A stretch of 64,000 nt of DNA from an uncultured Nitrospiraceae bacterium (GTDB taxonomy: Bacteria > Nitrospirota > Thermodesulfovibrionia > Thermodesulfovibrionales > UBA6898). The stretch lies in the NCBI GenBank assembly GCA_963811165.1, contig CAWEQH010000001.1, forward strand, positions 320,001-384,000, written 5' to 3'. Each line of letters opens with the position of its first letter. The first letter of the stretch is position 1. The position numbers and the translations under genes are program-made. Positions 3,369-33,685 of the stretch are shown here, piece after piece. The notes under the pieces are model-generated. The model made no database searches, was not told the origin of the DNA, and was given only the letters and a program-made list of their open reading frames with translations.

Positions 3369-4004
3369 GTGAGCGAAATATTCGTACTGGTTGATCGGTT
3401 CCCCACTATTGCATTATTTATCCTCCCTATCCTCGGAAGTGTCGGGCTGCCGGTCCCTGAGGACGCCATATTATTTTTGTGCGGCATATTGATTTCAAAA
3501 AAAAGCGTTTTGCCCCTCTCCGGACTTATGTCGGTGTATGCCGGCATTTTGCTTAGTGATTTTCTTCTCTATTCAATCGGGCGGAAATACGGTAGCCGGA
3601 TTGTCAGGCATAAGATATTCCGGAAAATACTCCCCCCTGAGAAGCTTGTCCTTTTAGAACAGAGATTCATCCGGTCCGGCCCTCTTATCATTTTGCTTGG
3701 CCGTCAGCTCTTTTGGGTGCGCGCAAAAGTTTTTCTCGTGGCGGGTATAATGAAAATGCCGGTTAAGAAGTTTCTGTTTATCGACGCGATCGCAGCATTG
3801 TGTACGACCGGCGTCATCGTAGCGCTTGGATATTCAGGGGGCACTTTTTTGTCATATTTCAGCCGTATTTCACCCCAAGCCGCCCGGATGGTCTGGATAG
3901 TAGTTTTTGTCCTTGCGATTATGGCTTTTATCTACCGGCTCTCAGTTTTGAAAAGCAGGAAAATATCTAAAACGTCCAGACTCCAGCTGAGCTGGCATCG
4001 GTGA
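3369..4004 (+). CDS. DedA/SNARE-associated family membrane protein
   Basis: GLPVPED, DFLLYSIGRKYG, LLGRQLFWVR motifs; start placed at GTG 3369 because the ORF-track start (3282) lies upstream of the promoter. Confidence 0.85.
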   Translation: MSEIFVLVDRFPTIALFILPILGSVGLPVPEDAILFLCGILISKKSVLPLSGLMSVYAGILLSDFLLYSIGRKYGSRIVRHKIFRKILPPEKLVLLEQRFIRSGPLIILLGRQLFWVRAKVFLVAGIMKMPVKKFLFIDAIAALCTTGVIVALGYSGGTFLSYFSRISPQAARMVWIVVFVLAIMAFIYRLSVLKSRKISKTSRLQLSWHR

Positions 4005-4258
4005 AAATCCGGCGCGAAATAGTGCGTAGATTTCTTATGGCGGCGATCCTTGCTTCCTTGTTTTTCATTAAAGCAGGCGGGGCGACGGCGAGTCTGCCAT
4101 CGCAACTATTAATCGGCTTTGACGGATCAACACGGGATAATGGTACGCCTCCTCAGCCGTGGACCGTCAGACTCAGAGAAGGAAAAGCCGGCGCAACGGT
4201 GAATTCTATAACAATTTTGCGCCCTGTTGGGCCAACCTGGACCTTACGCTCTCGTTGA
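4001..4258 (+). pseudogene. Probable truncated exported protein (signal peptide plus DUF3047-like start), running into the phoH 3' end
   Basis: GTGA overlap with the dedA stop, signal peptide, GTPPQPW segment, then overlaps the opposite-strand gene. Confidence 0.35.
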
Positions 4259-5495
4259 GATGCAGGAAACAAAAGTTTTCTTCCTGTATGAACTTGCTGA
4301 TGAGATATGCGAGTCCGTTGCTCATGGCGTCCAGGTATGGTGTATCTATCTGGTCGAGGTCTCCGGTGAAGACGATTTTAGTCCCTTCGCCGCACCTCGT
4401 GATGATCGTTTTAACGTCCAACGGCCGGAGGTTCTGAGCCTCATCAATGATGAAGTATCTCCTGGGCAGGCTTCTTCCCCGGATATAGGTAAGGGCCTCG
4501 ATCTGGAGCACGCCTGAATCGATCAGATACTGAAAATTCTTATATCCATAAAGGGCGGTGTTGTCTTTTACCTGGTCTTTCGGCGTGCGTACGATGACCT
4601 CAAGACTATCGAAGATCGGCTGCATCCAGGGCGCAAGTTTTTCGCCCACATCTCCGGGAAGGTAGCCGATATCATTTCCCATAGGAACAATCGGTCTTGC
4701 CACGACTACCTGTTCATAAAGGGGTGATCTTTTCGTTGTCTGATGTATTGCTGCGGCCAGGGCGAGGAGTGTTTTTCCTGTTCCCGCGGTTCCGGTCAAC
4801 GCCACAACCTCGATATCGGGGTTGATCAGGGCATCGATTGCGCATCGCTGTTCGACGTTCTTCGGGGATATGCCGTCAAGCGATTTGCCATTTCTGATCT
4901 TTGATGCGTCGTCTCTTCCCCTGAGCCGATATATGTCATCGGCTTCCTTCAGATACCGGACGGAATGAATGCCGTTACGATAATCACCGTTGCTTAGAAC
5001 TTTCCCGTACTGCTTGAACATCGACGTCTTGTCGTTTTTGTAATCCTCAGCATGGAGACCGAATGACTCGGCCTTTATTCTTACTGCAGTGTCTTTTGAC
5101 ACAAGTATTACGCGGGGCGCCCCCCCGTTTTTGTCCCGGGATTCAGACGCGGAGATCGAAAGGGCGGTGCTGATAATCTGGTTGTCCTCAACGCTGCAGT
5201 CAAGGGTCGGAGGCGCGGCCTCATTCGGCCCGGTGCTGACTAAGAGGACACCGCCTTGCTTTAGGGTTATCCCCGAAGAGAGAGAACCTCTTTCCCTCAG
5301 GGAGTCTATTATCCTCAAGGCCTTCCTCGCAGAAGCTGCAATTTCTCCCGGGCCTTTTTTAAGCCTGTCAAGCTCTTCGATTACGACAAAGGGGATTACA
5401 ATATCGTTCTCATCGAACCTAAAGAGAGAACTCGGATCGTGAATCAGGACATTGGTATCGAGCACAAAGATTTTTTTGGTCTCCTTCGTTTCCAT
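4206..5495 (-). CDS. phoH: PhoH-family ATPase with N-terminal PIN domain
   Basis: FVLDTNVLIHDP PIN motif, GTAGTGKT Walker A, IGYLPG, YIRGRSL, IIDEAQN, GDLDQID; start at METKE after GAAGGTGA (ORF track extends to 5570). Confidence 0.9.
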   Translation of the reverse strand: METKETKKIFVLDTNVLIHDPSSLFRFDENDIVIPFVVIEELDRLKKGPGEIAASARKALRIIDSLRERGSLSSGITLKQGGVLLVSTGPNEAAPPTLDCSVEDNQIISTALSISASESRDKNGGAPRVILVSKDTAVRIKAESFGLHAEDYKNDKTSMFKQYGKVLSNGDYRNGIHSVRYLKEADDIYRLRGRDDASKIRNGKSLDGISPKNVEQRCAIDALINPDIEVVALTGTAGTGKTLLALAAAIHQTTKRSPLYEQVVVARPIVPMGNDIGYLPGDVGEKLAPWMQPIFDSLEVIVRTPKDQVKDNTALYGYKNFQYLIDSGVLQIEALTYIRGRSLPRRYFIIDEAQNLRPLDVKTIITRCGEGTKIVFTGDLDQIDTPYLDAMSNGLAYLISKFIQEENFCFLHLNESVRSRLAQQGAKLL

Positions 5496-5716: not shown

Positions 5717-5760
5717 AGTATGGCACATTATTATTACAGAAACGTTACATTTCTGATAAA
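5717..5760 (-). promoter_or_regulatory. Pho-box-type promoter for phoH
   Basis: Minus strand TTTATC-n5-TGTAAC-n5-TGTAAT-n10-CATACT. Confidence 0.65.
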
Positions 5761-6021: not shown

Positions 6022-6076
6022 TGTAACGGAAATGTAATCTTTCCTTCACACTGCGGTAATATTCGTTCTTTACACT
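6022..6076 (+). promoter_or_regulatory. Pho-box-type promoter of phoB (autoregulatory)
   Basis: TGTAAC-n5-TGTAAT-n5-CTTCAC-n5-GGTAAT-n10-TACACT. Confidence 0.8.
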
Positions 6077-8290: not shown

Positions 8291-8983
8291 ATGCTGCTGT
8301 GTGATTTTCACATCCACACTACCTATTCAGACGGCTCTGTGGAGCTGAGAAGGACAATCGATCTTTTCGGACAGGCAGGCTTTGATGTTATTTCAATAAC
8401 GGACCATGTGGTCAATGGTGATAATCCGCTTGGAAAGCTCGCACATCGTTTTAAGTATTCTGTAACAGCCGATAACTTCAGTAAATATATTTCCCACATA
8501 AAAGAAGAGGCGCAAAGGGCGCAAGACAAATATGACATGCTCGTCATTCCCGGAATTGAAATAACCAAGAACCGTCTCACCATAGACAACTCAGCCCATA
8601 TGCTGATCATCGATGTCCAGGACTTCATCCCCGCGTGCATAAGTTATGAAGAGATATTCCTGGCGGCGAAGAGACAGAATGCCTTGACGATAGCATGCCA
8701 CCCGCATTATATGTCGGCAAAGAGCGACCGGGACACACTCTTTCTCTGGAACAACAGGGAAAAATATGCCCGCTACATCGACGCATGGGAGATCGCCAAC
8801 AGAGACGACGTCTTCAATGTAATAAGCCTCAAAAAATATCCGTATATCGCAAACAGCGACTTCCACAAGCCCAGACATCTTTACTCCTGGAAGACGCTTC
8901 TGAATTGCGCGAAAGACATAGACTCCATAAAACAGTGCATCAAACATAACAAGGGCGTTGCATTGACACTCTTTAGAAATTAG
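8291..8983 (+). CDS. PHP-domain phosphoesterase
   Basis: DFHIHTTYSDG, ITDH, GIEI, CHPH, ANSDFH motifs. Confidence 0.85.
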   Translation: MLLCDFHIHTTYSDGSVELRRTIDLFGQAGFDVISITDHVVNGDNPLGKLAHRFKYSVTADNFSKYISHIKEEAQRAQDKYDMLVIPGIEITKNRLTIDNSAHMLIIDVQDFIPACISYEEIFLAAKRQNALTIACHPHYMSAKSDRDTLFLWNNREKYARYIDAWEIANRDDVFNVISLKKYPYIANSDFHKPRHLYSWKTLLNCAKDIDSIKQCIKHNKGVALTLFRN

Positions 8984-8986
8984 GAG

Positions 8987-10201
8987 GTGAACATGATTTT
9001 ATTCTGGATCTTTGCGGGTATTACTTGCTTTGGGATAATCGGATATCTGCTTCAAATTGTCGCGGTCCGGTCATATACGGCATCCCCCAACTCAGGGGAA
9101 AGCGTACGCTTTCCCCAATCTTTTTCTCCGGTCTCAATCCTTAAGCCGCTCAAAGGCCTTGATGATGGGCTGTTTGACAACCTCGAAAGCTTCTGCAATC
9201 TTGAGTATCCCCACTATGAGATCATCTTTGCGCTTCAGAACCAGAATGATCCGGCCCATAAAGTGGTAAAAAAGGTAAAGGAGAAATACCCTTTAAAAGA
9301 CATAACCATTGTCGTTGAACATTGTGATGAGGGGCTGAACCCCAAGGTCAACAATCTGATCCCGGCATATAAGAGGGCCAAATATGATCTGATATTGATA
9401 AGCGACAGCAATGTCCGTGTGGAAAAAGACTACCTGGCTGCCATTGCCGGACACATGGAAGATCCGTCGGTCGGACTTGTCAGCAATATGATCAGGGGCG
9501 TACACGGCCGGTCCCTTGGGGCCCTCATGGAAAATCTCCACCTGAACACATTTATTGTGGGAAGCGTCTGCTTCCTCGATAAATATCTTAAGATGCCCTG
9601 TGTCGTGGGCAAGTCAATGCTGATGAGGAAGGCCGAGCTTGAAGCCATCGGGGGCTTCAGGTCTGTCAAGGACTTTCTTGCGGAGGACTACATAATCGGC
9701 CAAAGAATTCACGCACTCGGCAAAAGGGTCGTCCTTTCCGGCCATCTTATCAACAATGTCAATGAATATTGGGGGATAAAGAGGTTTATTAACCGTCATA
9801 CAAGATGGGGAAAGCTGAGATGGCAAATCGGAGGCGCGAAGTATTTCTCCGAATTGGCCGGCAATGCCGTATTCATGTCCTTCATGCCGATGGTCTTCAT
9901 GCCTGCGTCAAAAATTGCTTTATTGCTGGCTGCGGCGGTGAGTTCTCTGAAAATAGTCCATGATTTCTACATCGGCAACAAACTTCGCGCCGATATGAAC
10001 CCCCTGCTCTATTTGCTGTCCCCTGTCAAGGACCTTATTATCGGATTCGTATGGTTTGTGCCGATCCTGAGCAACACCGTAGCCTGGAGGGGCAACAGAT
10101 ATATCATCGGCAAGGAATCGATGCTCTCACCGTATCCGGAGACCGGCATATGGGCATGGCGGTACAGGATCATGGACGTGATAAAAACAAGGATTGCTTA
10201 G
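8987..10201 (+). CDS. Glycosyltransferase family 21 (ceramide glucosyltransferase/HpnI-like)
   Basis: SILKPLKG, NPKVNNL, ISDSNV, LAEDY, RHTRW motif; N- and C-terminal TM segments. Confidence 0.85.
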   Translation: MNMILFWIFAGITCFGIIGYLLQIVAVRSYTASPNSGESVRFPQSFSPVSILKPLKGLDDGLFDNLESFCNLEYPHYEIIFALQNQNDPAHKVVKKVKEKYPLKDITIVVEHCDEGLNPKVNNLIPAYKRAKYDLILISDSNVRVEKDYLAAIAGHMEDPSVGLVSNMIRGVHGRSLGALMENLHLNTFIVGSVCFLDKYLKMPCVVGKSMLMRKAELEAIGGFRSVKDFLAEDYIIGQRIHALGKRVVLSGHLINNVNEYWGIKRFINRHTRWGKLRWQIGGAKYFSELAGNAVFMSFMPMVFMPASKIALLLAAAVSSLKIVHDFYIGNKLRADMNPLLYLLSPVKDLIIGFVWFVPILSNTVAWRGNRYIIGKESMLSPYPETGIWAWRYRIMDVIKTRIA

Positions 10202-13114: not shown

Positions 13115-13170
13115 TGTAACAGAAAATTAACATTCCTTTAATAATCCATTAACAGACGGTTTGTTATGCT
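13115..13170 (+). promoter_or_regulatory. Pho-box-type promoter for microprotein-arsC
   Basis: TGTAAC-n5-ATTAAC-n5-TTTAAT-n5-ATTAAC-n11-TATGCT; first 17 nt identical to the pstS box. Confidence 0.8.
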
Positions 13171-13190: not shown

Positions 13191-13379
13191 ATGAATATAA
13201 GATACATTATCTGTCCCCATCTTAAAGGCAGTTATGACGGAGCGGTCTGTAGCGGCGTCAACAAGCTGATCAAGAACATAGAAGGCGTCACCATTAAATT
13301 GTGCATGGGCAGGCATTACGAGGTGTGCTCGATATATCGGGAGTCTCTGCTGCCCCAGGAGCCTGTCAGTGCGGTGTAA
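13191..13379 (+). CDS. Four-Cys microprotein, CPH-x9-C-x17-C-x7-C-SIY
   Basis: Strong RBS GAGGAGGGAGG; shared Cys spacing. Confidence 0.75.
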
Positions 13380-13410: not shown

Positions 13411-13839
13411 ATGGAAAAAAAGAAGGTCCTTTTTGTATGCATCCATAACAGTGCCCGCAGCCAGATGGCGGAGGCATTCCTCAATCTTCTGGCAGGGGAC
13501 CGGTTTGAGGCTGAAAGCGCAGGCCTTGCTCCAGGCAGACTAAATCCTTTGGCGGTGGAAGTGATGAAGGAAATAGGGATCGATATCTCTCAGAAAGGAA
13601 CACAGGGCATCTTTGATTTTATCAAGAAGGGGAAACTGTTCCATTATGTGATCACCGTCTGTGACGAGGCGAACGCCGCCCGATGTCCTGTCTTCCCCGG
13701 ATATGCCAGGAGGGTGCACTGGAGTTTCAAGGACCCTTCGAGTCTTGATGGGCCGTACGAGGAGAGATTACGTAAGACAAGGGAAATCCGCGACGAGATA
13801 CGGGCCCGCATAGAAGGGTGGATAAAGGAAGTCAGTTAG
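13411..13839 (+). CDS. arsC: Arsenate reductase, LMW-PTP family
   Basis: [16 protein letters not shown]-loop, ITVCD...CPVFP, HWSFKDP, RDEI. Confidence 0.85.
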
Positions 13840-14009: not shown

Positions 14010-14279
14010 ATGGTCACCTATATCATCAAACATCATGTCCCGGGCCGGATAAGACTGGATGTCCCCGCATTGAGAAAAATTGCCGAGCATAGGCTGAAAA
14101 AGATATCGAAGGCCATGACAAGGCTTCCTGTCTTTATGGGGATAAGAGACCTCACGGTGAATCCCGGCAACGGCAGCGTAGCTATTGAATATGACTCCGA
14201 AGTTGTCGACATTATTGATTACCTGGAGGACATGTCAGTTATCGTGGAAACGCTCGATTGTCTGGAAAGACACCGGTGA
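14010..14279 (+). CDS. HMA2-type (heavy-metal-associated-like) domain protein
   Basis: HHVPGRIRLDVP...GIRDLTVNPGNGSVAIEYD signature. Confidence 0.75.
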   Translation: MVTYIIKHHVPGRIRLDVPALRKIAEHRLKKISKAMTRLPVFMGIRDLTVNPGNGSVAIEYDSEVVDIIDYLEDMSVIVETLDCLERHR

Positions 14280-14290
14280 AGGAGAAAAAT

Positions 14291-14644
14291 ATGGCTTGTA
14301 TCGATTATCTGCAGACGGAGGCAAGGTGTTCGAGAGGGATCCCGGTTGCGCATCTTTTCAGGCATTTCTTCTGTGAGTCGAAGCCTGAAAAATGCCCGAT
14401 TGCTTTGTGGAAAGTATCTTCTCGGGAGAAGGATAACAACCACAATCATCTTAAGGAGGAAGCCATGCAATGCCCGCATCTTTTGAAATGGGTGCTATCA
14501 TCTTGCAAAGCCGCGGAGAGACCCTATGTCCCGAGCCTTTTTGAGCTGGAGGAATATTGCAGAACCGGAGAACACAGAAAGTGCCCTTTTTACCTGAGAG
14601 ATATCGTCAGGACCAACACGGCGAGGGTCAAAGTGTCCGCATAA
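14291..14644 (+). CDS. Tandem four-Cys microprotein (two modules; internal start at 14465)
   Basis: RBS AAGGAGA; module 1 C-x9-C-x14-C-x6-C; module 2 CPH-x8-C-x17-C-x7-C-PFY preceded by an internal TAAGGAGG. Confidence 0.7.
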   Translation: MACIDYLQTEARCSRGIPVAHLFRHFFCESKPEKCPIALWKVSSREKDNNHNHLKEEAMQCPHLLKWVLSSCKAAERPYVPSLFELEEYCRTGEHRKCPFYLRDIVRTNTARVKVSA

Positions 14645-14936: not shown

Positions 14937-15230
14937 ATGGCATTGCTTGATGATGTATTTAAAGGCGGCAACGTGGTAACAGGCTTGGCTATCGGCATCG
15001 GAGCGGCGGTGCTCGGACCGGTTGTATTGCCTATACTGGCCGGGGCTGCGAAACCGTTGGCGAAGGCCGTGATAAAGGGGGGCCTTGCGCTATGTGCAAA
15101 AGGGAAGGAGTCAGCTGCTGAGTTCGGCGAGGTCTTTGAAGACATTGTTGCAGAAGCGAAAGCGGAACTCGCGGAAGAGCACGAAAAGGCAATTCCCGTT
15201 CCGCCTGCCGAAGCTGAAGAAAGTGTCTAA
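14937..15230 (+). CDS. Small GxxxG membrane protein, DUF5132/FezA-like
   Basis: GLAIGIGAAVLGPVVLP...KPLAKAVIKGG...EVFEDIVAEAKAEL; RBS AAGGAGA. Confidence 0.8.
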   Translation: MALLDDVFKGGNVVTGLAIGIGAAVLGPVVLPILAGAAKPLAKAVIKGGLALCAKGKESAAEFGEVFEDIVAEAKAELAEEHEKAIPVPPAEAEESV

Positions 15231-15708
15231 TACCCCGGAAGCATATATAGGCCATAAGATGAATGGCAGATTGAGACTAAGGATCCCTTCGAAAAAAAAA
15301 GACGGCCTATATATGAAAAAAATTACCGAGGAATTCTCATCACTCCCGGGCATTGCGCAGGTAATCGTGAACACCGAGACATCGAGCGTTCTCTTCCTGC
15401 ATGATCTTTCGGAAGACGCAATCATGGGACATCTCAGTGCAAGCGGTCTCTTCCGGCTTTCCGGGGCTCCCACAGGCCGGGGAGACGTGCATCACGGAAT
15501 CAAAGGATGTTTTCGGGAGATGTCCGGCAAAGTCGAGAAGGCGACAGGAGGAACGATTGGCATCAGTGAAGTTGCCTTCCTCGCATTGTTTGGCGCCGGG
15601 GTTATGCAGATAGGTCGGGGGAATTTTACTGCGATCCCCTGGTACACGGCATTTTGGTATGCGCTTAATATTTTTCTGAAATCGGACGCACAGAAGGCCG
15701 GAGAATAG
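15223..15708 (+). CDS. HMA2-type domain with C-terminal membrane segment (FezC-like architecture)
   Basis: HKMNGRLRLRIP...PGIAQVIVNTETSSVLFLH; C-terminal FLALFGAGVMQ...PWYTAFWYA; start overlaps the upstream stop. Confidence 0.75.
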   Translation: MSNTPEAYIGHKMNGRLRLRIPSKKKDGLYMKKITEEFSSLPGIAQVIVNTETSSVLFLHDLSEDAIMGHLSASGLFRLSGAPTGRGDVHHGIKGCFREMSGKVEKATGGTIGISEVAFLALFGAGVMQIGRGNFTAIPWYTAFWYALNIFLKSDAQKAGE

Positions 15709-15838
15709 CTGTACCCATTCAAAACGACGGTGAAGGTGCAGTGAGCCCGAAGAGTTCTATCGTTCTCATCAGCTTTTGAAAAAGGTGAACGGCTCAATAA
15801 ATTAAAGTAACTTTTCTCAACAGAGAAGGAGGTCAGTT

Positions 15839-16522
15839 ATGTCTCGGGAAGAAGTCATGCGCGGTGCCGGTTATGCAGAAGACGTAAGCAAGGCCGGGGC
15901 GACTGTAAAAGAGGGCGTAATCAGCAGCCTTAAAGGTCTCAATGAGATTGAGGCGGAAATCGTGAGTCTCGTGAGGAACACGGTCTCAAACACTTTGCGT
16001 GCAACGGGAGAAGTGGCGATCGAAAGTGTCTCCATTTCAAAGGATGTCATCAAGGGGGCTATCCAGGCCACCGAGGAGGTCGGAACAGGACTTATCCTGA
16101 GCACGAAAAGTGTTGCCAAAGGGGTAATCATGGGGGTGAGCGATGTAGGCGGCGATGTGGTTACGGTAGCAAGCCAGACAGTTAAAGGCGCGGTTAAGGG
16201 GGCCGCTGAAGTCGGCGCGGATGTCGCCCTTGTTGCAAGACGATCTGTCGATGGAGTGATCGAGGCGACAAAGGAGATAGGAGGGAATGTGGAAGAAGTC
16301 GCGAAAGTGGCGGTCGGAGGGGCGATTGAGGCTGCAGGGACAATCGGTAATACGGCGGTGAAGGCTGTGAGGGACATGCTCGTCGGCGTAGTCGAGGGCG
16401 TAAAGGAGATTGCGGGCGCGGCCTTGCCTAAACCGAGGACCTCTTCCCCAACAGCAACAAAAGCTCCTGCGTCAAAACCGGTTGCTGCGAAAAAAGAGGC
16501 TGCGACCAGGAAAAAGAAGTAA
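15839..16522 (+). CDS. Gly/Ala/Val-rich 22-aa repeat protein with Lys/Ala/Pro-rich tail
   Basis: Consecutive 22-mers such as KGAIQATEEVGTGLILSTKSVA, KGVIMGVSDVGGDVVTVASQTV, KGAVKGAAEVGADVALVARRSV; RBS AAGGAGG. Confidence 0.8.
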   Translation: MSREEVMRGAGYAEDVSKAGATVKEGVISSLKGLNEIEAEIVSLVRNTVSNTLRATGEVAIESVSISKDVIKGAIQATEEVGTGLILSTKSVAKGVIMGVSDVGGDVVTVASQTVKGAVKGAAEVGADVALVARRSVDGVIEATKEIGGNVEEVAKVAVGGAIEAAGTIGNTAVKAVRDMLVGVVEGVKEIAGAALPKPRTSSPTATKAPASKPVAAKKEAATRKKK

Positions 16523-16534
16523 GAATAATACCCC

Positions 16535-19500
16535 GTGGTTCGGCCTGTACACGTTGCGGTAAAAGGAAGGGCCCGCTTTAAAGTAGCGGGCCTTTACCGG
16601 TCGGCCCTGCTCAAGGAGCGGATTGAACTCACCCTTAATTCACTCGACGGAATAAGAGAGGCATCGGCCGACACACGTACAGGCAATGTTTTAGTATATT
16701 TCAATTCCGAAAATACTCCCGGGTCAATCGCATCGGCAATCGCCGCTTCAATTTATGACTACAAATCTCAGCATCGTAACAACAATTCGCCGGAAAACAA
16801 AAAAGACGCAGTCGGCATCATACCAGCGCCGCGGGAAGAAGCTTCCAAAGAGCAGGTCAGGCCTGCTATCACGAGGAGGAAGTTAAGAAAGAGCATCATC
16901 AAGGCAGAGGAGCAAAAGCCTGATCCCTGGCACCAGATGGATGTCTGTGAAGTGGCCGGGCGGTTTGGCACCTCCCAGCACTACGGGCTTCCCAGTGACA
17001 TCGCAAAAACGAATCTGAAGCGGTATGGTCTCAATGTCCTTCCGGAGGCGGTGCCCCGCTCCGGGTTAAGCATCTTTCTGGGCCAGTTTAATTCACTTCC
17101 TGTGGCTCTGCTCGGCGTTGCTGCCGGGATTTCAATAGCCACGGGAGGCGTCGCCGACGCGATCGTAATTGCGGGGGTGGTGGTTATCAATGCGGTAATA
17201 GGGTATGGGACTGAAACCCAGACCGAAAAGACGATCCATGCATTGAAAAGCCTTGTCAGACCTTCTGCAACGGTCAAGCGGGACGATCAAATCATAGAGC
17301 TGGGAGCAGAGGAAGTCGTCCCCGGAGATCTGCTGATCCTCAGGCCAGGCAGTTATGTGCCGGCAGATGCAAGACTGCTTGAGACATATCACCTCAGTGT
17401 TGACGAGTCTGCCCTTACGGGAGAGAGTCTCCCTGTAATGAAGACAAGTCTGCCTTGCGCTGTCGAAGAAATCCCCCTTGCAGACAGGATCAACATGGTC
17501 TATATGGGGACTCTAGTGACCGGGGGGCAAGGGACCGCCGTGGTCGTGGCAACGGGCAGGTTTACCGAGATAGGAAAGATCCAGGCGCTCGTGGGAGAGG
17601 CGGAATCTCCAGACACCCCAATGGAGCGGCAGCTTCATAAGATGGGCACACAGCTAGTCTTTATAAGCGGAGCTGTCTGCGGACTTGTCTTTATTGTCGG
17701 ACTTCTGCGCGGATACGGTTTTTTGGAGATGCTCAAGAGTTCCATATCTCTTGCCGTTGCCGCAGTGCCGGAGGGACTCCCTACCGTTGCAACTACAACC
17801 CTGGCCCTGGGGATCAGGGACATGAGGCGGCACAACGTGCTCATCAGGCATCTAAACGCGGTCGAAACGCTGGGGGCCGTGCAGACGATCTGTCTTGACA
17901 AGACGGGGACAATCACGATGAACAGGATGTCGGTAGTCGCTGTCCATACCGGCATGAAACGATATGAGGTCTCAAATGGGACAATCGCGGCTTCACGGCA
18001 GAAGGTGAGCCCCTATTCAGTCGACGAACTTCTGAGACTCTTGCACGTGAGCGTGCTCTGCAGCGAAAGCGAGGTCGAAAGGGAAAAAGGTACTTATGCG
18101 GTCAGCGGCTCTCCTACCGAAAACGCCCTGATCTATATGGCGTTGAACGCCGGCATTAATGCCGTTTCTCTCAGGGAGAGGTTCCCCGTGTTGAATATCA
18201 CTCATCGTTCGGAAAGTCACAATTATATGTCTACTGTCCACAAATCTGAAAATGGATCGGTCATCATTGCGGTAAAGGGGAGCCCCGGAGAGGTCCTTTC
18301 AATCTGCAGCTGGCACATGAAAGACGGAGAGAAGCTTCCTTTGACGGAGGAGGAAATGCTTTTCATAGAGACGGAAAATGAACGCATGGCCGGTCAGGCG
18401 CTCAGGGTCCTCGGCGTTGCCTATTCAGCAAAGGACGATGAGGCGGCCCTTTCCGAAGATAGAAGCGATCTTCATGAAGACCTGATATGGCTCGGGCTCG
18501 TCGGTATGGCAGACCCCATCAGGGAAAATGTGAAAGAACTGGTACACGGGTTCCACGAAGCCGGAATCGATACGGTCATGATAACGGGCGACCAGAGCCC
18601 TACCGCGTATGCGATAGGAAAGGAATTAAATCTGAGCGACAACGGAGACCTCGAAATCCTTGACTCTACGCACCTTGCGAAAATCGAGCCCGAGGTCATG
18701 AAGGCCCTCTGTGAAAGGGTACACGTCTTTGCCCGCGTCAGTCCTGCACATAAGCTCCAGATTGTCCAGGCGCTCCAGTCCGCCGGGAAAGTGGTTGCAA
18801 TGACCGGAGACGGGATCAACGACGGCCCGGCGCTCAAGGCAGCGGATATCGGGATCGCCATGGGCCATACGGGCACCGATGTCGCCCGCGAGGTGGCCGA
18901 CGTGATCATCGAAGACGACAATCTCGAAACAATGCTTATCGCGGTAAGCGAAGGAAGGACGATCTATAACAATATCAGAAAGTCCGTCCACTTTCTCCTT
19001 TCGACCAACCTCAGCGAGATCATGGTGATGTTCACCGCAATATCGGGAGGACTCGGACAGCCGCTCAATGCGATGCAGCTGCTGTGGATCAATCTTATTA
19101 GCGATATATTCCCGGGGCTTGCCCTTGCCCTTGAACTTCCGGAGCCGGATGTGTTGAGCCGCTCCCCCCGCGACCCACACGAGCCGATTGTAAGAAATTC
19201 CGATTTCAAGCGGATAGCTTTCGAGTCGGCAATGCTTTCCGCTGGTTCCCTGGGGGCTTACGGGTATGGCATCGCCCGCTATGGGATAGGACCGCGGGCA
19301 GGTTCGCTTGCATTCCTCAGCCTTACGGCAGGACAGCTTCTTCACGCCCTGAGCTGCCGTTCCGAGCAGCATAGCATGTTCAGCGCCGAGAGACTGCCCC
19401 GAAACAAGTATCTTGAAATGGCACTGGGCGGTTCCTTTGCGCTTCAGATACTGGCAGTGACTGTCCCCGGTCTTAGGAGACTTTTGGGAATAGGTCCTCT

Positions 19501-19594
19501 CAGTATCCTCGACGGTCTCGTGATCGGCGGAAGCGCCGCTTTTCCGCTTCTTGTAAACGAGGCGACGAAATCCTCCTTGAGGTTGGCAAGATGA
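16535..19594 (+). CDS. P-type ATPase of SERCA/P2A type with N-terminal HMA2-type domain
   Basis: LTGES, AAVPEGLP, DKTGT, KGSPG, MITGD, TGDGINDGPALK, STNLSE, LWINLISD; N-terminus HVAVKGRARFKV...DTRTGNVLVYF. Confidence 0.9.
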   Translation: MVRPVHVAVKGRARFKVAGLYRSALLKERIELTLNSLDGIREASADTRTGNVLVYFNSENTPGSIASAIAASIYDYKSQHRNNNSPENKKDAVGIIPAPREEASKEQVRPAITRRKLRKSIIKAEEQKPDPWHQMDVCEVAGRFGTSQHYGLPSDIAKTNLKRYGLNVLPEAVPRSGLSIFLGQFNSLPVALLGVAAGISIATGGVADAIVIAGVVVINAVIGYGTETQTEKTIHALKSLVRPSATVKRDDQIIELGAEEVVPGDLLILRPGSYVPADARLLETYHLSVDESALTGESLPVMKTSLPCAVEEIPLADRINMVYMGTLVTGGQGTAVVVATGRFTEIGKIQALVGEAESPDTPMERQLHKMGTQLVFISGAVCGLVFIVGLLRGYGFLEMLKSSISLAVAAVPEGLPTVATTTLALGIRDMRRHNVLIRHLNAVETLGAVQTICLDKTGTITMNRMSVVAVHTGMKRYEVSNGTIAASRQKVSPYSVDELLRLLHVSVLCSESEVEREKGTYAVSGSPTENALIYMALNAGINAVSLRERFPVLNITHRSESHNYMSTVHKSENGSVIIAVKGSPGEVLSICSWHMKDGEKLPLTEEEMLFIETENERMAGQALRVLGVAYSAKDDEAALSEDRSDLHEDLIWLGLVGMADPIRENVKELVHGFHEAGIDTVMITGDQSPTAYAIGKELNLSDNGDLEILDSTHLAKIEPEVMKALCERVHVFARVSPAHKLQIVQALQSAGKVVAMTGDGINDGPALKAADIGIAMGHTGTDVAREVADVIIEDDNLETMLIAVSEGRTIYNNIRKSVHFLLSTNLSEIMVMFTAISGGLGQPLNAMQLLWINLISDIFPGLALALELPEPDVLSRSPRDPHEPIVRNSDFKRIAFESAMLSAGSLGAYGYGIARYGIGPRAGSLAFLSLTAGQLLHALSCRSEQHSMFSAERLPRNKYLEMALGGSFALQILAVTVPGLRRLLGIGPLSILDGLVIGGSAAFPLLVNEATKSSLRLAR

Positions 19595-20802
19595 AAAAAG
19601 ACTTCATATTTACCTCCGAATCGGTTACCGAAGGCCATCCCGACAAACTCTGTGATCAGATCAGCGACGCGCTTGTCGACCACTTCCTTCAGCAGGACCC
19701 TTTTTCGCGGGTCATTGCCGAATGTGCCGTATCAACGGCGATCATTTTCATCGCCGCGAGGTTTTCGTCCGACGCCAGTGTCGATTTCCCGAATATCGCC
19801 AGACAGGTCATCAACCAGATCGGGTATGACCAGCAGGCCTTTAACGCCAAGACCTGCAGCATAGTCACAAGCCTCAAGGAAGTGCCCTCCGAGGAAAACC
19901 GGCGCTTTGACGAGAGAAATCTGACGGAAGACGAAATCGACGCTATCCCCGTCCGTAATCAGGTCACGGTATTCGGATTTGCCTGCAACCAGACGCCCTC
20001 GCTGATGCCCCTTCCGATCTGGCTCGCCCATCGACTTGCACGAAAACTGACCGCAGTGAGACTCCAAAAGGTACTTCCCTATCTGGCGCCCGACGGAAAA
20101 ACCCAGGTCGGCGTGGAGTATAAAAATGGAAGGCCCTACCGGGTCCATACCATAACGGTCATAGCCAGTCAGAGTAAGACGGAGAAGTCGGGCGGCCCCG
20201 ACCTTAAGAGTCTTTATGGTGATATGCTGGATACCGTCATTCGTCCTGCCTTTGTTGACGAGGAGATCAGGCCCGATGCCGACACAAGGATATTCATAAA
20301 CCCCGATGGTCCATTTATCACGGGCGGGCCCTCAGTGCATTCAGGGCTCACGGGGAGGAAAAATGCGATCGACACCTATGGTGAATATTCCAGGCAAAGC
20401 GGCGCGGCGCTCAGCGGCAAGGACCCTCTTCGGATAGACAGAATCGGCGCGTATGCCGCCCGGTATGCGGCAAAAAATATTGTTGCCGCGGGCATCGCCG
20501 CCGAATGCGAAATCCAGTTGAGTTATTCCATAGGGCTTTCCCGTCCCGTAAGCATCCAGGTGGAAACGTTCGGCACAGGCCGGATTTCCGACGAAGAGAT
20601 CTCCAGGATTATCGAAGGCCGGTTTGATTTCCGCCTCGCAGGGATTGTCCGCCAGTTCAACCTCAGATTTCTCCCTTCCATAATCAAGGGAGGTTTTTAC
20701 AGAAAACTCGCCTCGTATGGTCATGTCGGCAGAATGGATATCGGTCTTCCCTGGGAATTGACGGATAAGGCAGGCATAATTCGTGACGAAGTTGCCGGGT
20801 GA
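19591..20802 (+). CDS. metK: Divergent methionine adenosyltransferase (MetK) paralogue
   Basis: FTSESVTEGHPDK, GLTGRK, SGKDP, YGHVGR present, but GAGDQG and other substrate residues replaced; ATGA overlap with the ATPase. Confidence 0.8.
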   Translation: MKKDFIFTSESVTEGHPDKLCDQISDALVDHFLQQDPFSRVIAECAVSTAIIFIAARFSSDASVDFPNIARQVINQIGYDQQAFNAKTCSIVTSLKEVPSEENRRFDERNLTEDEIDAIPVRNQVTVFGFACNQTPSLMPLPIWLAHRLARKLTAVRLQKVLPYLAPDGKTQVGVEYKNGRPYRVHTITVIASQSKTEKSGGPDLKSLYGDMLDTVIRPAFVDEEIRPDADTRIFINPDGPFITGGPSVHSGLTGRKNAIDTYGEYSRQSGAALSGKDPLRIDRIGAYAARYAAKNIVAAGIAAECEIQLSYSIGLSRPVSIQVETFGTGRISDEEISRIIEGRFDFRLAGIVRQFNLRFLPSIIKGGFYRKLASYGHVGRMDIGLPWELTDKAGIIRDEVAG

Positions 20803-20853: not shown

Positions 20854-20952
20854 AATCTCCCCCCCTCTTTACCAGAGAGGGGATTATCCCTCTCCTTTTC
20901 TCCCCGGCGAACCCGCCTGTGTGCGGTGACAAAGGGAGGGCAGGTGGGATTT
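20854..20952. repeat. REP-like palindromic element between convergent genes
   Basis: CCCCTCT-n6-AGAGGGG hairpin and CCCTC...GAGGG arms. Confidence 0.4.
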
Positions 20953-21001: not shown

Positions 21002-21877
21002 TTAGACGAAATCTTGCGTGAGATACTCTGCCGGTTCTTTCTGCTGTTTTTGTTCGTAGAGTTCAAGATAGATGTCTGAGAACCCGTACTTCTTGCGAAG
21101 ACTCTGTTTCATCTCCTTCACCCCGGCGCGGTCATAGGTCGTCCCGTTTGTTCTAATTCGTACCAGCAAGATAATTTTTTCCGGGGACAGACCCCATATG
21201 TGGAGATCCTTCACGCTGCTTATATCAGGGAAATTCGTATAGATGAATTTTTCAATCTCCGCGGGGTCTATCTTTGCGGGGTTGCCTTCCATGAGGATAT
21301 GCACGCTCTCCTTTACCAGAAAGTAGGTCGGATACGCGACGAGGAGTCCAATGATGACTGCGGTAAGGGGGTCCAGGAAATAGAGGCCCGTGAACTTTAT
21401 GACAATGGAAGAGGTTATGACCCCGACTGACCCCAGTGCATCGTTTGCGATCAGCAATAGCGCGCCTTTAAGGTTGATGTCTGCCGAGTGCCTGTAAAAC
21501 ATGATGAACCCATACGCATTGACTGCAAGTCCTATCACTGCGATTAAGAGTACCTTGTCTGCCTCGAGTGGCTGGGGATGCATGATCTTGCTATACGCGT
21601 CGGCAAAGACATAAAAAAGGAGAAACCCTACCAGTATCCCGTTGAACAGGCCCGAGATCACCTTGGCCCGTTCGTACCCGAATGTCTTGGTTTTGGTAGG
21701 CAGGCGCTTTGCGAGCCGCGCAACATAAAACGCGACGAATTGACCGGTGATATTGATCGCCATGAAAGAGGCATCGGTAACCAGGGCCAGGCTTCGGTAA
21801 TAAAGCCCGCCGAAGAGTTCGACAAAGAAGTATGCAATCGTCAGAAGGAGAACAGTTTTTTGCTGATTACTATCCAT
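21002..21877 (-). CDS. Cation diffusion facilitator (CzcD/ZitB-like) with non-canonical metal site
   Basis: SLALVTDA, KTFGYER, NLKGA...DALGSVGV, KDLHIW; six TM segments. Confidence 0.85.
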   Translation of the reverse strand: MDSNQQKTVLLLTIAYFFVELFGGLYYRSLALVTDASFMAINITGQFVAFYVARLAKRLPTKTKTFGYERAKVISGLFNGILVGFLLFYVFADAYSKIMHPQPLEADKVLLIAVIGLAVNAYGFIMFYRHSADINLKGALLLIANDALGSVGVITSSIVIKFTGLYFLDPLTAVIIGLLVAYPTYFLVKESVHILMEGNPAKIDPAEIEKFIYTNFPDISSVKDLHIWGLSPEKIILLVRIRTNGTTYDRAGVKEMKQSLRKKYGFSDIYLELYEQKQQKEPAEYLTQDFV

Positions 21878-22141
21878 GTCTTAACAGTGTTGACAGCCAG
21901 CTTTTCGGAGAGTCTTCCAAATAATGGCCAACGACATCTTTCACAGCCTTACCGAGCGAGATGTACATACTTTAATGCCTCGCTAACACTGTGTCCAACG
22001 ATTAATTCATTACTTGCCTATCCTATAGCAATAAAAGCAGAGGCAATTGGCAACCCGAAGGGCTCTTAACGCTGTGGTATAGTAATAAAAGGCCGGGGAT
22101 ATTCCGTAAAAAAAGGGAAACGAAAGGGAGGTCTTATTGAA

Positions 22142-22486
22142 ATGGACTACTACATCCATTATACGCATGGAAGGATGAGAATACAGACCCCTCATCTTCA
22201 CGAAAATCCCGCCAAGGCGAAAGAACTTGAGGACTTTCTCAAAAAAGTTTCGGGCATACTGTCGGTCGAAACAAATCCCGTTACGGGCAGCGCCCTGTTT
22301 TATTTTGACGAGAAAAAGATAAACTGCGAACAGATAATCTGCATGCTCGAAAAGAACCATTATCTTTGTCTCCTCAAGGCAGAGACGAACGATCAAGTCG
22401 TTAAAAAAACAGCCGAGAAGGTCCTGGGATTTGCCGAGAAGGTCGTTGTCGATTCCCTCGGGGAGGGACCCATTGAGGGTGAATGA
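22142..22486 (+). CDS. HMA2-type domain protein
   Basis: YIHYTHGRMRIQTP...GILSVETNPVTGSALFYFD; RBS AGGGAGG; paralogue of 32565..32933. Confidence 0.8.
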   Translation: MDYYIHYTHGRMRIQTPHLHENPAKAKELEDFLKKVSGILSVETNPVTGSALFYFDEKKINCEQIICMLEKNHYLCLLKAETNDQVVKKTAEKVLGFAEKVVVDSLGEGPIEGE

Positions 22487-22549
22487 AGTGCTATAGATAG
22501 TGGCAACAGGACCGACCAAGAGATGTACCTTAGCATCAGATAAAGCCAA

Positions 22550-22792: not shown

Positions 22793-23271
22793 ACAAAATG
22801 ATTGAGGTGCCTTTCTCAGATCGACTCTTCATCATAGGGCCTGCACGCTAAGGGTATCCGGTCTCTTTATGAGTAAAGAATAACAATTTCTCCTATCAAA
22901 GTGAATGCAATCATAGGCAGATAATGAAAAAACAGCAGAGGGTATCTCACATCCTCCGGAGCTTTGGTGATACACTTTAATCCAGAGAACCGATAGGCCA
23001 AATCCTTTCGAGAAGGAGGAGATGAGTCGGGTACTACAAGCAACGTTCCGCAAATTTTCGTAGGATAAGCGATGGCAAGTCGGCCTGGTTACGTATAAAC
23101 ATTTGTTGTGCCTATTACAGGCGGAGGGGTGTAATGAATGCTGAAGCGACCGGTAACGTACATGACGGCCCTTTCCGAAGCCATACCATGACATAGAGAA
23201 GGGCGATTACGGAGCAGTCTTTTCTATTTGCAATGTTCTTTTTTTACTTTTTTTGTAAGGATGAGGGAATC

Positions 23272-25764: not shown

Positions 25765-27567
25765 ATGAATACCATGAAGAAAAAAGTATTGACTAGTTTA
25801 GTTTTTGTGCTGGCCTTTGCTGTGTTCAGCACGGCGGCTTTCGCAGGCATTCTGAAAAAGCCCTACTTGATTTACCCGGGGGTGAACACCCAGATGGAGG
25901 TGGTCTGGCAGGACGACACCGCGAGCGAGACGAATACCATTAGTTGGGGCACCGACATGACGTACAGCATGGGTAATGTGACGGCGCCTGAGTTCGGCGA
26001 CAGGCAGCACAAGTACACAATCACCGGACTGACGCCGAACAAGAAATACTACTACCAGGTGGCTGACCAGACCAGCGGCGCCATCTACGGCGCCGGATCG
26101 TTTATCACTGCGCCCCACGGAAGCGCAACTGCGGTAAGGTTCCTCGCATTGGGTGATTCCAGGAGCCAGCCATTTGCCCTGGACAACGTGATGCAGGCGA
26201 TGCGCAGCTTTTATTCACAGCCAGGCAACGAGGACTATCAACGCCTTACCATTCATAACGGGGACTGGGTGAGCACCGACGGCGAAAGCTACTGGACGAC
26301 CCAGTGGTTCGACGCGACCAAGACGGACATCGTCGCATTTACGGCGAATTCGCCCATCGACGGATGCAAGGGTAATCATGATAACGCTTCAGGGTACAGC
26401 GCTACCTTCCCGAAGTACTTTCCCTTCCCGTATACGAATATGACTTCTAAAACAGTTGCTCCTACAACAGATGCCAGTGGTAATCCTTACTACAATAACC
26501 TCTACTGGTCCTTCGATTACGGTCCGGTCCACTTCACCGTTGTCGACGAGTACTCAAGCTATGCTCCAGGCTCCCCCCAGTACAACTGGCTCGTAAACGA
26601 TCTGGCCACGACAACAAAGCCGTGGAAGATCCTAATATACCACGAGCCGTCGTATTCCGCCGGCAAAGACGGCGACAACATCACTGCGAGGGCGCTCGAA
26701 CCTCTCATCACTCAATATAATGTGGACCTGGTCTATGCCGGCCACAGCCACAACTATGCCCGCACCGGGGCCTATACTTCCGCCCAGGCAAACGGTGACC
26801 AGATCGCCCTGAATGTCCCGCATATCACCAGCGGCGGCGGCGGCGCACCAGTTTATCAGCCCGATATGACCAATGAGGGCAACTTTCCGCACGTAATCAC
26901 AGCCTGGCCGGCCATGGAGTTCATGACCTTCGACGTAGATGGGGAAAACCTCACCATGACCGCCTATCAGGTAAACAACGTGAGTACGTCCGCTATCCAG
27001 CCTTCGTCGGCGCTGTCCCTTTCACCGATCGAGACTGTTGCTCTCCATCACTTTACCGACGTCTCATCGCAGGTAAGCGTAAAAACCACCCACATGACTT
27101 ACAATCCTGCGACCCAGCTATACCGGTGCAACCTGGAGATCACTAATAACGGCCCCGCCCTCACCGGTAACATCCACGTTGTTCTGGACGGCATTGTCAA
27201 CCTCCAGGGGGTCGGCAATGCAGATAACGAATACAGCACCACCACTCCGAAAATTGCCTCAAAGATCGCCCAGAACACCGGCCTCATCACGGACGTCACG
27301 CTGGTCAATGCAACCGGTTCGAACAATGGTGAGCCGATGATCCGGGCTAAACATACCGGATTGGCCAAAAGAGACTCGGTCGTCGTTCCGCTATCGTTCA
27401 GCAATCCGAATAACACAGCGATTACCTTTACGCCTGTGGTGTTGCTTGAACGAGAACATGGGCGTCAGTGCAACCGGCGCGAACAATGTCGAACCGATGA
27501 TGATAAGGGCTACGACCAATGGTCTGGCAGCCGGCAAGAAGACAGTCATTCCGCTGAAGGTCGGTGA
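25765..27567 (+). CDS. Secreted purple-acid-phosphatase-like metallophosphoesterase with FN3 domain
   Basis: Signal peptide; GLTPNKKYYYQV FN3; LGDSR, HNGDWV, GNHD, YHEP, AGHSHNY metal motifs. Confidence 0.85.
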   Translation: MNTMKKKVLTSLVFVLAFAVFSTAAFAGILKKPYLIYPGVNTQMEVVWQDDTASETNTISWGTDMTYSMGNVTAPEFGDRQHKYTITGLTPNKKYYYQVADQTSGAIYGAGSFITAPHGSATAVRFLALGDSRSQPFALDNVMQAMRSFYSQPGNEDYQRLTIHNGDWVSTDGESYWTTQWFDATKTDIVAFTANSPIDGCKGNHDNASGYSATFPKYFPFPYTNMTSKTVAPTTDASGNPYYNNLYWSFDYGPVHFTVVDEYSSYAPGSPQYNWLVNDLATTTKPWKILIYHEPSYSAGKDGDNITARALEPLITQYNVDLVYAGHSHNYARTGAYTSAQANGDQIALNVPHITSGGGGAPVYQPDMTNEGNFPHVITAWPAMEFMTFDVDGENLTMTAYQVNNVSTSAIQPSSALSLSPIETVALHHFTDVSSQVSVKTTHMTYNPATQLYRCNLEITNNGPALTGNIHVVLDGIVNLQGVGNADNEYSTTTPKIASKIAQNTGLITDVTLVNATGSNNGEPMIRAKHTGLAKRDSVVVPLSFSNPNNTAITFTPVVLLEREHGRQCNRREQCRTDDDKGYDQWSGSRQEDSHSAEGR

Positions 27568-33439: not shown

Positions 33440-33630
33440 AGGTCATGCGAATGATCTTCTTGAGTCTCATGATTCGCCCGGTTGCAATAGTTGTTCCCTG
33501 TGAAGGCAGCCCTAATCTCTCTATATAGAGGAGATCTTCGATAAAAAATATGCGAGGAACTGCCATTTCGGTTATTTGCTATCGTGTGTATATGGCGGTA
33601 AAATCAGAAGGAGGTGAGATTGTCACGGCA

Positions 33631-33685
33631 TGTAACAGAAAATTAACTTCCTTGTAACAGTATTGTAACAATCAGTCTGTATCCT
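33631..33685 (+). promoter_or_regulatory. Pho-box promoter of pstS
   Basis: TGTAAC-n5-ATTAAC-n5-TGTAAC-n5-TGTAAC-n10-TATCCT. Confidence 0.85.

Follow-up and report, generated by a model that had tools for sequence, protein, structure and literature searches.

The S-adenosylmethionine (SAM) synthetase MetK, or methionine adenosyltransferase (MAT; EC 2.5.1.6), is among the most conserved and best studied of enzymes. In the human enzyme, according to portions of two papers, Glu70, Gln113 and Asp258 hold the main chain of methionine and ATP is positioned by Asp179, Ser247, Arg249 and Phe250 (PMC6850014, PMC7271947), with Ser247 contacting adenine N1 and Phe250 stacking (PMC6850014). An excerpt of PMC7271947 lists 12 MAT catalytic residues that are highly conserved across 2963 sequences (His29, Asp31, Glu57, Glu70, Gln113, Lys181, Asp258, Arg264, Lys265, Lys285, Lys289 and Asp291), and describes Arg264-Glu57 as a salt bridge at the dimer interface. 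Mutations can separate SAM synthesis from tripolyphosphate hydrolysis: in PMC6850014, human patient mutants, among them Asp258Gly, Lys289Asn and Arg249Trp, make little SAM with their phosphatase activity unaffected, and E. coli gating-loop mutants lose more than 200-fold in kcat with tripolyphosphate hydrolysis unchanged. Here we describe a MetK-like gene in a stretch of 64,000 nucleotides from an uncultured Nitrospiraceae bacterium (GenBank assembly GCA_963811165.1, contig CAWEQH010000001.1, positions 320,001 to 384,000; hereafter the window), which overlaps the gene of a P-type ATPase. We put at roughly 0.55 the probability that its product no longer makes SAM, has a triphosphate/metal site that still functions, and acts in the service of the pump.

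The open reading frame (ORF) at 19591-20802 (+) has a stop-free translation of 403 aa, designated P0001, which matches PF00438, PF02772 and PF02773 with E-values of 1e-35 to 5e-53. Its closest solved structures are bacterial MetKs (E 1e-98 to 1e-92), and it is 41% identical to E. coli K-12 MetK by BLASTP and 47% identical to the canonical MetK of its own genome. An AlphaFold2 model built on a 61-sequence alignment was confident (predicted local distance difference test, pLDDT, 95.5; predicted template-modelling score 0.94), with the lengthened gating loop, in blocks 101-110, at pLDDT 83. The top Foldseek matches of this model were exclusively MetK/MAT (template-modelling score 0.85-0.91, 38-43% identity), and a search of the ESM Atlas returned generic MetK clusters only. 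The protein shares with canonical MetK (TIGR01034; E. coli, PDB 1FUG and 7LOO; Lactobacillus plantarum, 7R3B) the same three-domain fold, the His/Asp/Lys/Arg site for triphosphate, Mg and K, and the residues of the dimer salt bridge. An initial annotation, made from the letters alone, had named the ORF a MetK paralogue translationally coupled to the ATPase, and both points were borne out. A canonical metK, scoring 595.1 bits against TIGR01034, was looked for and found on contig 4 of the same genome, so that P0001 is not the sole MetK homologue there; the ORF adjoining that canonical gene reads by eye as a putative adenosylhomocysteinase gene. The ATPase stop and the MetK-like start share an ATGA (...gcaagATGAaaaaa), with the ATG at 19591 and the TGA at 19592-19594, and a GAGG stands about 10 nt 5' of the start codon. 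An assembly duplicate of metK was ruled out, as the two copies share only 47% identity and have different surroundings.

Residues were compared in an alignment of 229 full-length proteins, with columns in E. coli MetK numbering without the initial Met. Human numbering was converted according to where the motifs lie, with offsets of 15 and 20, which we take to be correct and which are consistent with the alignment ranges to solved relatives. Set against E. coli MetK and 77 canonical MetKs, the motif changes first read from the sequence all held: GGEIT has become AARFS (E55 to R57), QSPDI is lost within a lengthened, acidic gating loop, GAGDQG has become PVRNQV (D118 to N123), GRF has become GPF, GDCGLTGRK has become VHSGLTGRK (D238 to H250) and SKVDR has become LRIDR, the last including a change of K269 to R281 that had not been singled out before. 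SGAALSGKD stands in place of GGGAFSGKD. GAGDQG and GGGAFSGKD are presumably signature loops of the MetK family; of the 77 canonical proteins, 71-77 have G115, A116, G117, D118, Q119 and G120, and 76-77 have G258, G259 and G260. All three methionine ligands are replaced in P0001, where the positions of E55, Q98 and D238 (human Glu70, Gln113 and Asp258) hold R57, V98 and H250, and most relatives have Leu at the Q98 position.

The motifs reported as retained are also all present in P0001, namely GHPDK (15-19), D168-G-K170, G255-R-K257, G276-K-D278 and D283-R284. The residues for triphosphate, Mg and K (H14, D16, K17, E42, K165, R244, K245, K265 and D271 in E. coli) are complete in P0001, each is kept in 119-120 of the 120 close relatives described below, and in 37 genome-derived members they vary little or not at all. 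Counted on the 12 catalytic residues in the excerpt of PMC7271947, P0001 keeps eight (H16, D18, E44, K170, R256, K257, K277 and D283, for human His29, Asp31, Glu57, Lys181, Arg264, Lys265, Lys285 and Asp291) and changes four, the three methionine ligands and Lys289, which has changed conservatively to Arg. The claim that methionine residues were replaced and phosphate and metal ligands kept holds, and it does so across the family. The companion claim that the methionine and adenosine residues had been rewritten stands fully for the methionine site and only in part for the adenosine contacts: the positions of human Ser247 and Arg249 are Asp and Pro, but P0001 keeps the stacking F230 (F242) and D163 (D168).

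The family extends well beyond this genome. A word-indexed search with P0001 gave at least 120 clusters at 75-97% identity, mostly from Nitrospirota/Thermodesulfovibrionales; the 120 listed clusters form our set of close relatives. A scan of one genome per species gave 235 relatives, the best 80 of which make up our set of genome loci and come from Nitrospirota, Thermodesulfobacteriota ('delta') lineages, Nostocales and Coleofasciculus cyanobacteria (68-74% identity) and one gammaproteobacterium (50%). An exhaustive HMMER search of 50%-identity representatives added 16 further distant full-length members with His for D238. In a quick maximum-likelihood tree of 124 proteins, the H-type proteins, as we call this family (H250 for D238, R281 for K269 and R57 for E55), fell on one side of a branch with SH-aLRT support of 97 (32 rows); that side includes one protein, P0136, with Asn at the D238 position. 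The close relatives of P0001 form a clade with support of 99, and the canonical MetK of the same genome and E. coli MetK were placed among the canonical enzymes. Against the nearest genome locus (L003), the ratio of nonsynonymous to synonymous substitution (dN/dS) was 0.067 for the MetK-like gene and 0.104 for the pump gene. By tree and substitution rates, the MetK-like gene is a conserved sister family of MetK under strong purifying selection. A decaying pseudogene was ruled out by the open frame, the dN/dS of 0.067 and the 60-97% identity across phyla. The suggestion in the initial annotation of a neofunctionalised enzyme is accordingly favoured over decay, by the monophyletic clade, the low dN/dS, the linkage to the pump and the near-constant presence of another SAM synthetase.

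The canonical MetK of the source genome shares 76% identity with the Magnetominusculus enzyme and 60-61% with the enzymes of Nostocales, whereas the MetK-like paralogue shows the reverse, with 61% identity to Magnetominusculus and 72% to Nostocales. Because the pattern is reversed between the two copies, we infer that the module of pump and MetK-like genes has moved between phyla. A search of 72,556 plasmid records gave one match at E 1e-100, a canonical metK with 46.5% identity, and no H-type copy; one of the genome loci (L033) is titled as a Nostoc plasmid.

Among the close relatives, the changed and the kept residues are both largely fixed. All 120 close relatives keep E8, H14, D16, K17, D20, E42, D163, K165, Q167, K245, K265, D271 and R272, and 119 keep R244. 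Equally invariant in all 120 are the new residues E55R, I56F, G253E, G258S, F262L, K269R and V270I, and nearly so are Asn for D118 (114, with Asp in the other 6), Val for G120 (112), Asp or Glu for T227 (119), Pro for R229 (109), Arg or Lys for G117 (108) and Leu or Met for Q98 (108). The 77 canonical MetKs have 77 positions conserved at 90% or more, at 59 of which the H-type set is identical, at nine switched and at nine unconserved; the nine switches are G54A, E55R, D118N, G120V, H189Q, D238H, G258S, K269R and V270I, and eight of them lie in active-site motifs. Among 37 genome-derived members at 51-96% identity, H16, P17, D18, K19, C21, D22, E44, H250, K257, K277, R281, D283 and R284 are invariant, and R57 and N123 vary in some lineages. 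Distant cluster representatives have His at position 238 in 16 of 16 and Arg at position 269 in 15 of 16. The family also has a gating loop 10 residues longer, acidic and with a conserved FDE..L[ST][DE].E[IM][DE] pattern, and an extra insertion, LPSxxKGG, relative to canonical MetK.

Read from these alignments, the fixed changes cost three acidic side chains (E55, D118 and D238) and bring Arg, Arg/Lys and His in beside the triphosphate site. The loss of acidic and gain of basic or His residues next to an intact triphosphate site would suggest a polyanionic ligand. The paralogue is changed at the same positions as the mutants that separate tripolyphosphatase activity from SAM synthesis, human MAT1A Asp258Gly, Lys289Asn and Arg249Trp and the E. 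coli gating-loop mutants (PMC6850014). In contrast to those loss-of-function variants of a SAM synthetase, however, the changes of the paralogue are fixed, co-adapted and conserved across phyla. A multi-phylum family of this kind, if it keeps only the triphosphate half, would be a natural case of a half-reaction turned into a function.

The adenosine contacts kept in P0001 could also point to a nucleoside-5' transferase or hydrolase, which would move the nucleoside of a nucleoside triphosphate to an anionic or neutral nucleophile or to water (ATP to adenosine and tripolyphosphate, PPPi) and then hydrolyse the PPPi. The stacking Phe is present in P0001 and in 114 of the 120 close relatives, and D163 in all 120. 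The Glu to Arg and Asp to His changes would suit an acceptor without an ammonium group, and the Asp or Glu found in 119 of 120 at the position of Ser247 could shift base preference. However, the stacking aromatic, present in 77 of 77 canonical MetKs, is lost in 15 of the 37 genome-derived members, and the distant cluster representatives have F, Y, L, P, V, S, G or R there. The adenine-ring loop as a whole (positions of T227, R229 and F230) is highly variable among the more divergent pump-linked members, and the conserved neighbourhood offers no candidate acceptor pathway. We consider such a transferase or hydrolase quite unlikely.

When 301 Nitrospirota genomes were searched with P0001, the matches were bimodal, with 44 places in 43 genomes at 62-100% identity and at least 550 bits, and canonical copies at no more than 50% identity and 371 bits. 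A canonical metK accompanies the paralogue in 39 of the 43 genomes, and some other SAM synthetase does so in 41. In two genomes with no canonical copy counted (G151 and G179), the other SAM synthetase is of the archaeal type (PF01941); a third of the same genus, g100 (G212), has the archaeal-type enzyme as well as a bacterial metK that is broken into two parts and contains one TGA. In this genus, from its gene content, it looks like the bacterial MetK has been replaced by the archaeal enzyme. The archaeal-type gene in g100 lies 6-7 kb from the module of pump and MetK-like genes, beside a phoBR-like two-component pair. Both copies were held by all five of the further genomes checked, four Nostocales and Candidatus Magnetominusculus. 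As judged from these gene inventories, the paralogue is not a stand-in for metK. Since these proteins carry SAM synthetase names and exceed the NCBI equivalog cut-off, they may be counted as a SAM synthetase, without being one, when metabolism is reconstructed for Nitrospirota, sulfate reducers and Nostocales.

The paralogue could instead be a true isozyme of SAM synthetase, with this second MetK adapted to phosphate starvation or to providing SAM locally. P0001 scores 373.7 bits against TIGR01034, the NCBI metK equivalog, where the cut-off is 309.4, and the source names among the listed clusters are, where given, methionine adenosyltransferase or S-adenosylmethionine synthetase. E. coli GrpR is another MetK paralogue inside a specialised operon that is annotated as a real enzyme. 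Its annotation makes GrpR a functional SAM synthetase dedicated to a radical-SAM-dependent system; unlike the paralogue, it is not linked to a pump. The gene grpR ('propanediol utilization system methionine adenosyltransferase') is annotated in 1138 of 5426 E. coli genomes. Against an isozyme, all three methionine-ligand side chains are replaced and GAGDQG is gone, and substitutions at two of these altered positions deprive human MAT of SAM synthesis (PMC6850014). Moreover, genus g100, with its bacterial metK missing or split, still keeps an archaeal-type MAT beside the paralogue, and the tree of the paralogue is at odds with the species relationships seen in the canonical copy. An isozyme therefore seems improbable to us. 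The paralogue, in which E55, Q98, D238 and K269 have given way to R, L/V, H and R, D118 to N, and the GAGDQG and GGGAF loops have been rebuilt, differs further from canonical MetK in its pairing with a pump gene and in hardly ever being the sole SAM synthetase of a genome.

The partner is a P-type ATPase with E1-E2, Hydrolase and N- and C-terminal Cation_ATPase domains and a weak N-terminal HMA_2 match, and DKTGT, PEGL and TGDGIND could be read directly. Among solved structures it comes closest to the Listeria Ca-ATPase LMCA1 (E 1.1e-145), SPCA1 and SERCA (E 1e-145 to 1e-119 for these matches). The pump is like these Ca-transporting P2A ATPases in having DKTGT, PEGL and TGDGxND and acidic and Asn residues of TM4, TM5 and TM6, which we take to correspond to the calcium sites of SERCA. 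It is unlike them in that a CoBaHMA domain, about 130 residues long, is added at its N-terminus and that it has an obligate MetK-like neighbour. The N-terminus aligned from residue 1-5 in 69 loci, so that a head of the CoBaHMA type is part of the conserved design of the pump; residues 1-130 are basic (pI 10.0).

When the neighbouring proteins of the window were used in tblastn searches, a pump homologue lay directly upstream on the same strand at 78 of the 80 genome loci, and one more locus, with 81 nt upstream, could not be assessed. Between the two genes, the estimated distance varies from a slight overlap up to about 340 nt. Metagenomes were also scanned, with the most divergent H-type subclade as the seed, and gave 80 loci, six of them H-type and 74 canonical metK. 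The pump was directly upstream at all five assessable H-type loci, including one with only 44% identity to P0001 (L084). The canonical genes served as an internal control, and a pump was found upstream of none of the 74 (59 with more than 600 nt and 38 with more than 3000 nt of upstream sequence). Natural fusions of pump and MetK were considered as a sign of coupling and rejected. They amounted to three singletons among 130 longer proteins (P0276, P0277 and P0301, of 947, 790 and 1090 aa) with large parts of both genes missing, each without the C-terminal membrane part of the pump, the MetK N-domain or both, and probably reflect either a deletion that spans the junction of the two genes or a chimera made in assembly. 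Many of the long MetK homologues (for example P0282-P0376) carry intein and LAGLIDADG domains (PF14890, PF14528), and some are named Aenigmarchaeota.

Near-obligate pairing with one family of P-type ATPases points to an accessory enzyme or subunit, and we know of none of this kind for any ion pump. The protein may be catalytically silent, a pseudoenzyme acting as a structural or regulatory subunit, for instance a sensor of PPPi, ATP, SAM or Ca2+ that gates transport. Strict adjacency of the two genes, often with overlap, is in keeping with this, the long, acidic, conserved gating loop could serve as a lid or as a cation-binding element, and the CoBaHMA region of the pump is, as mentioned above, basic. 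On the other hand, members at 51-96% identity without exception share the His that acts as general acid, the two Asp ligands of Mg and every Lys and Arg that binds phosphate. This conservation, together with the dN/dS of 0.067, is more typical of a working site, though a ligand-binding sensor would conserve residues too, and the three fused ORFs are incomplete chimeras. We regard a silent subunit as unlikely, though deserving of weight.

We favour instead a MetK-derived fold that has dropped SAM synthesis and retained the ancestral triphosphate/Mg/K site. Its synthesis would be tied in fixed register to that of the Ca-type P2 ATPase with the CoBaHMA head, and the protein would work with this pump. 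It may bind and hydrolyse inorganic tri- or short polyphosphate, or a nucleotide triphosphate, so that the second half-reaction of MetK would have been made autonomous, and phosphate would be released while the pump removes Ca2+ freed from, or competing with, the polyanions. In anaerobic lineages, small CoBaHMA and DUF5132 membrane proteins also belong to the cluster, and the Pho-box-like arrays that precede it predict control by phosphate starvation. The specific chemistry that seems likeliest within this reading, hydrolysis of tri- or short polyphosphate to yield scarce phosphate with the pump handling the Ca2+ carried, is offered as a tentative proposal. Similarly speculative is its fullest form, a tri-/polyphosphatase docked on the pump that under phosphate starvation strips Ca/Mg-bound short polyphosphate at the membrane and passes the Ca2+ to a CoBaHMA-regulated pump, and that has spread horizontally between anaerobes and filamentous cyanobacteria. 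If this were true, it would be a two-protein machine, previously unknown, coupling the mobilisation of polyphosphate to the extrusion or sequestration of calcium. Culturable Nostoc and Anabaena strains carry the pair, which makes the question testable; loci L028, L038, L044 and L081 come from strains of Nostoc, Anabaena, Cylindrospermum and Aliinostoc.

Several points weigh against a pump-serving protein that no longer makes SAM. P0001 exceeds the cut-off of the NCBI metK equivalog, as given above, and since it keeps F230 and D163 it may still bind ATP. Loss of Q98 is by itself weak evidence, because human Gln113Ala retains about 75% of activity (PMC6850014, in part). The comparison at columns 55, 118 and 238 is circular, the groups being partly defined by these, and the remaining columns are independent. 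Family models found no second SAM synthetase in G193 (100% complete by markers, in 300 contigs) or G127 (89% complete), and tblastn found no pump gene within 8 kb upstream at one genome locus (L069). No convincing Pho box was seen before 36 cyanobacterial loci, in a scan for the cyanobacterial consensus YTTAAYYW in 11-bp phase; with 3 mismatches allowed, the scan gave 625 scattered matches and a weak peak. Because of this last result, control by phosphate may be limited to some lineages.

Evidence for phosphate control comes from repeat arrays in the window and upstream of related loci. The array at 13115-13158 is a candidate phosphate-starvation promoter of the cluster. Five TGTAACA-like 7-mers in 11-bp phase, at 33620-33670 before a PstS-like gene, have the same architecture. 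A two-repeat pattern with at most 3 mismatches matched 16 times in the window against 2.3 expected, and none of 100 shuffles reached 16. Taken together, the arrays would mark a phosphate-starvation island at roughly 4-37 kb in the window. The phosphate-related genes of the window comprise the PstS-like and permease genes (33714 onward), a purple-acid-phosphatase-like gene (25765-27567) and genes for PhoH-PIN, an OmpR-type regulator and a GT21 glycosyltransferase. Arrays at 5721-5760 (-) and 6022-6039 are among those before the PhoH-PIN and OmpR-type regulator genes, and the pattern match at 13115-13132 precedes the cluster.

In the anaerobes, 31 loci had 900 nt or more of upstream sequence, and at 18 of them an array of three repeats (at most 6 of 21 mismatches) occurs on the same strand within 3.5 kb of the pump start. 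In 30 rounds of a dinucleotide-shuffle control, the mean was 0.73 and the maximum 2 on the same scale of 31 loci; on the opposite strand, the array was found at 8 of the 31. No Pho box was seen directly before the repeat-protein gene (15700-15840).

Features of the cluster and its surroundings, with coordinates in the window unless a genome locus is given
Feature	Coordinates	Strand	Evidence or remarks
Pho-box-like array	13115..13158	+	TGTAACA / ATTAACA / TTTAATA / ATTAACA, 11-bp phase, then about 10 nt and TATGCT
Low-molecular-weight phosphatase/ArsC-like gene, between Pho-box array and cluster	13411..13839	+	PF01451 LMWPc, E 1.8e-17
Small HMA_2 (CoBaHMA-type) protein, 96 aa	13989..14279	+	PF19991, E 6.9e-9; motif HVPGRIRLDV
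DUF5132 small membrane protein	14937..15230	+	PF17195, E 6.8e-16
HMA_2 (CoBaHMA) protein with hydrophobic C-terminal hairpin	15085..15708	+	PF19991, E 1.7e-11
Gly/Val/Ala/Glu-rich helical-repeat protein, 227 aa	15839..16522	+	no Pfam match
P2-type (Ca-type) P-type ATPase, N-terminal HMA_2/CoBaHMA	16535..19594	+	Pfam/NCBIfam, motifs read; stop overlaps MetK-like start
MetK-fold paralogue, H-type, triphosphate/metal site intact	19591..20802	+	alignments, profiles, model
Terminator-like hairpins, both strands, between MetK-like and convergent CDF genes	20859..20894	.	consensus scan only
CDF-family divalent-cation efflux transporter, convergent	21002..21877	-	PF01545, TIGR01297
Archaeal-type SAM synthetase	L164 (G179:C46) 3560-4831	-	PF01941, about 537-539 bits
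Archaeal-type SAM synthetase	G151:C70:5491-6675; G212:C2:330366-331553		PF01941, about 537-539 bits

Downstream of the 13115-13158 array, the LMWPc/ArsC-like, HMA_2, DUF5132, HMA_2 hairpin, repeat-protein, pump and MetK-like genes form a same-strand run that ends at terminator-like hairpins. The run is possibly a single transcript, and since gaps of 130-290 nt occur within it, there is room for internal promoters. The true start of the second HMA_2 ORF, that with the hairpin, is probably internal, near MNGRLRLRIP at about 15259. In a set of 26 anaerobe loci picked for long flanks, DUF5132 recurred at 23, small CoBaHMA proteins at 23 and 22 (the latter being homologues of the hairpin protein) and the helical-repeat protein at 18; homologues of the repeat protein, at 62-92% identity, precede the pump gene at the majority of anaerobe loci. 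The recurrent genes of the 36 cyanobacterial loci were limited to those for the pump (36) and the MetK-like protein (36) and a longer DUF5132-like ORF (23).

The neighbourhood resembles that of the calcyanin gene ccyA of Microcystis aeruginosa PCC 7806 (bioRxiv 10.1101/2024.07.07.602159; PMC8890360), where small HMA_2/CoBaHMA and DUF5132 proteins also stand beside calcium-type transport genes. It differs in that the window cluster has no calcyanin gene and its predicted context is phosphate starvation, not carbonate biomineralisation. In the parts of these two sources that were available, a word search found no mention of the MetK-like gene or of a CoBaHMA-headed P-type ATPase; the paper defining CoBaHMA (Proteins 2024, doi 10.1002/prot.26668) may mention such pumps. 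Our searches of the full-text literature found no description of a pump-linked H-type MetK-like family. The fold is a known one; the design of its active site and its partnership with a pump are new. The cluster also ties CoBaHMA and DUF5132 proteins, hitherto discussed only near the cyanobacterial calcium-carbonate gene, to predicted control by phosphate starvation.

A CDF gene directly follows the MetK-like gene in the window, where it is convergent, and in two other loci, where it is co-directional (L007 5053-5898 and G179 L164 9811-10713); it may be part of the same cation-handling unit. Elsewhere in the phosphate island, PHP-domain and GT21 glycosyltransferase genes occupy 8291-10201 (+), and in L012 and L070 homologues of them are found close to the module. 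This pair may reflect synthesis of phosphate-free glycolipid under phosphate limitation, a link that we assume. Two small Cys-rich ORFs without a Pfam match, at 13191-13379 (+) and 14258-14644 (+), are putative genes between the Pho-box array and the DUF5132 gene. Beyond the CDF gene, the ORFs at 22010-22549 (-) and 22832-23194 (-) likewise lack a Pfam match, and weakly similar homologues of them occur close to the module elsewhere; the region of L003 that matches them encodes small CoBaHMA-like proteins with a YVPGRMRI motif.

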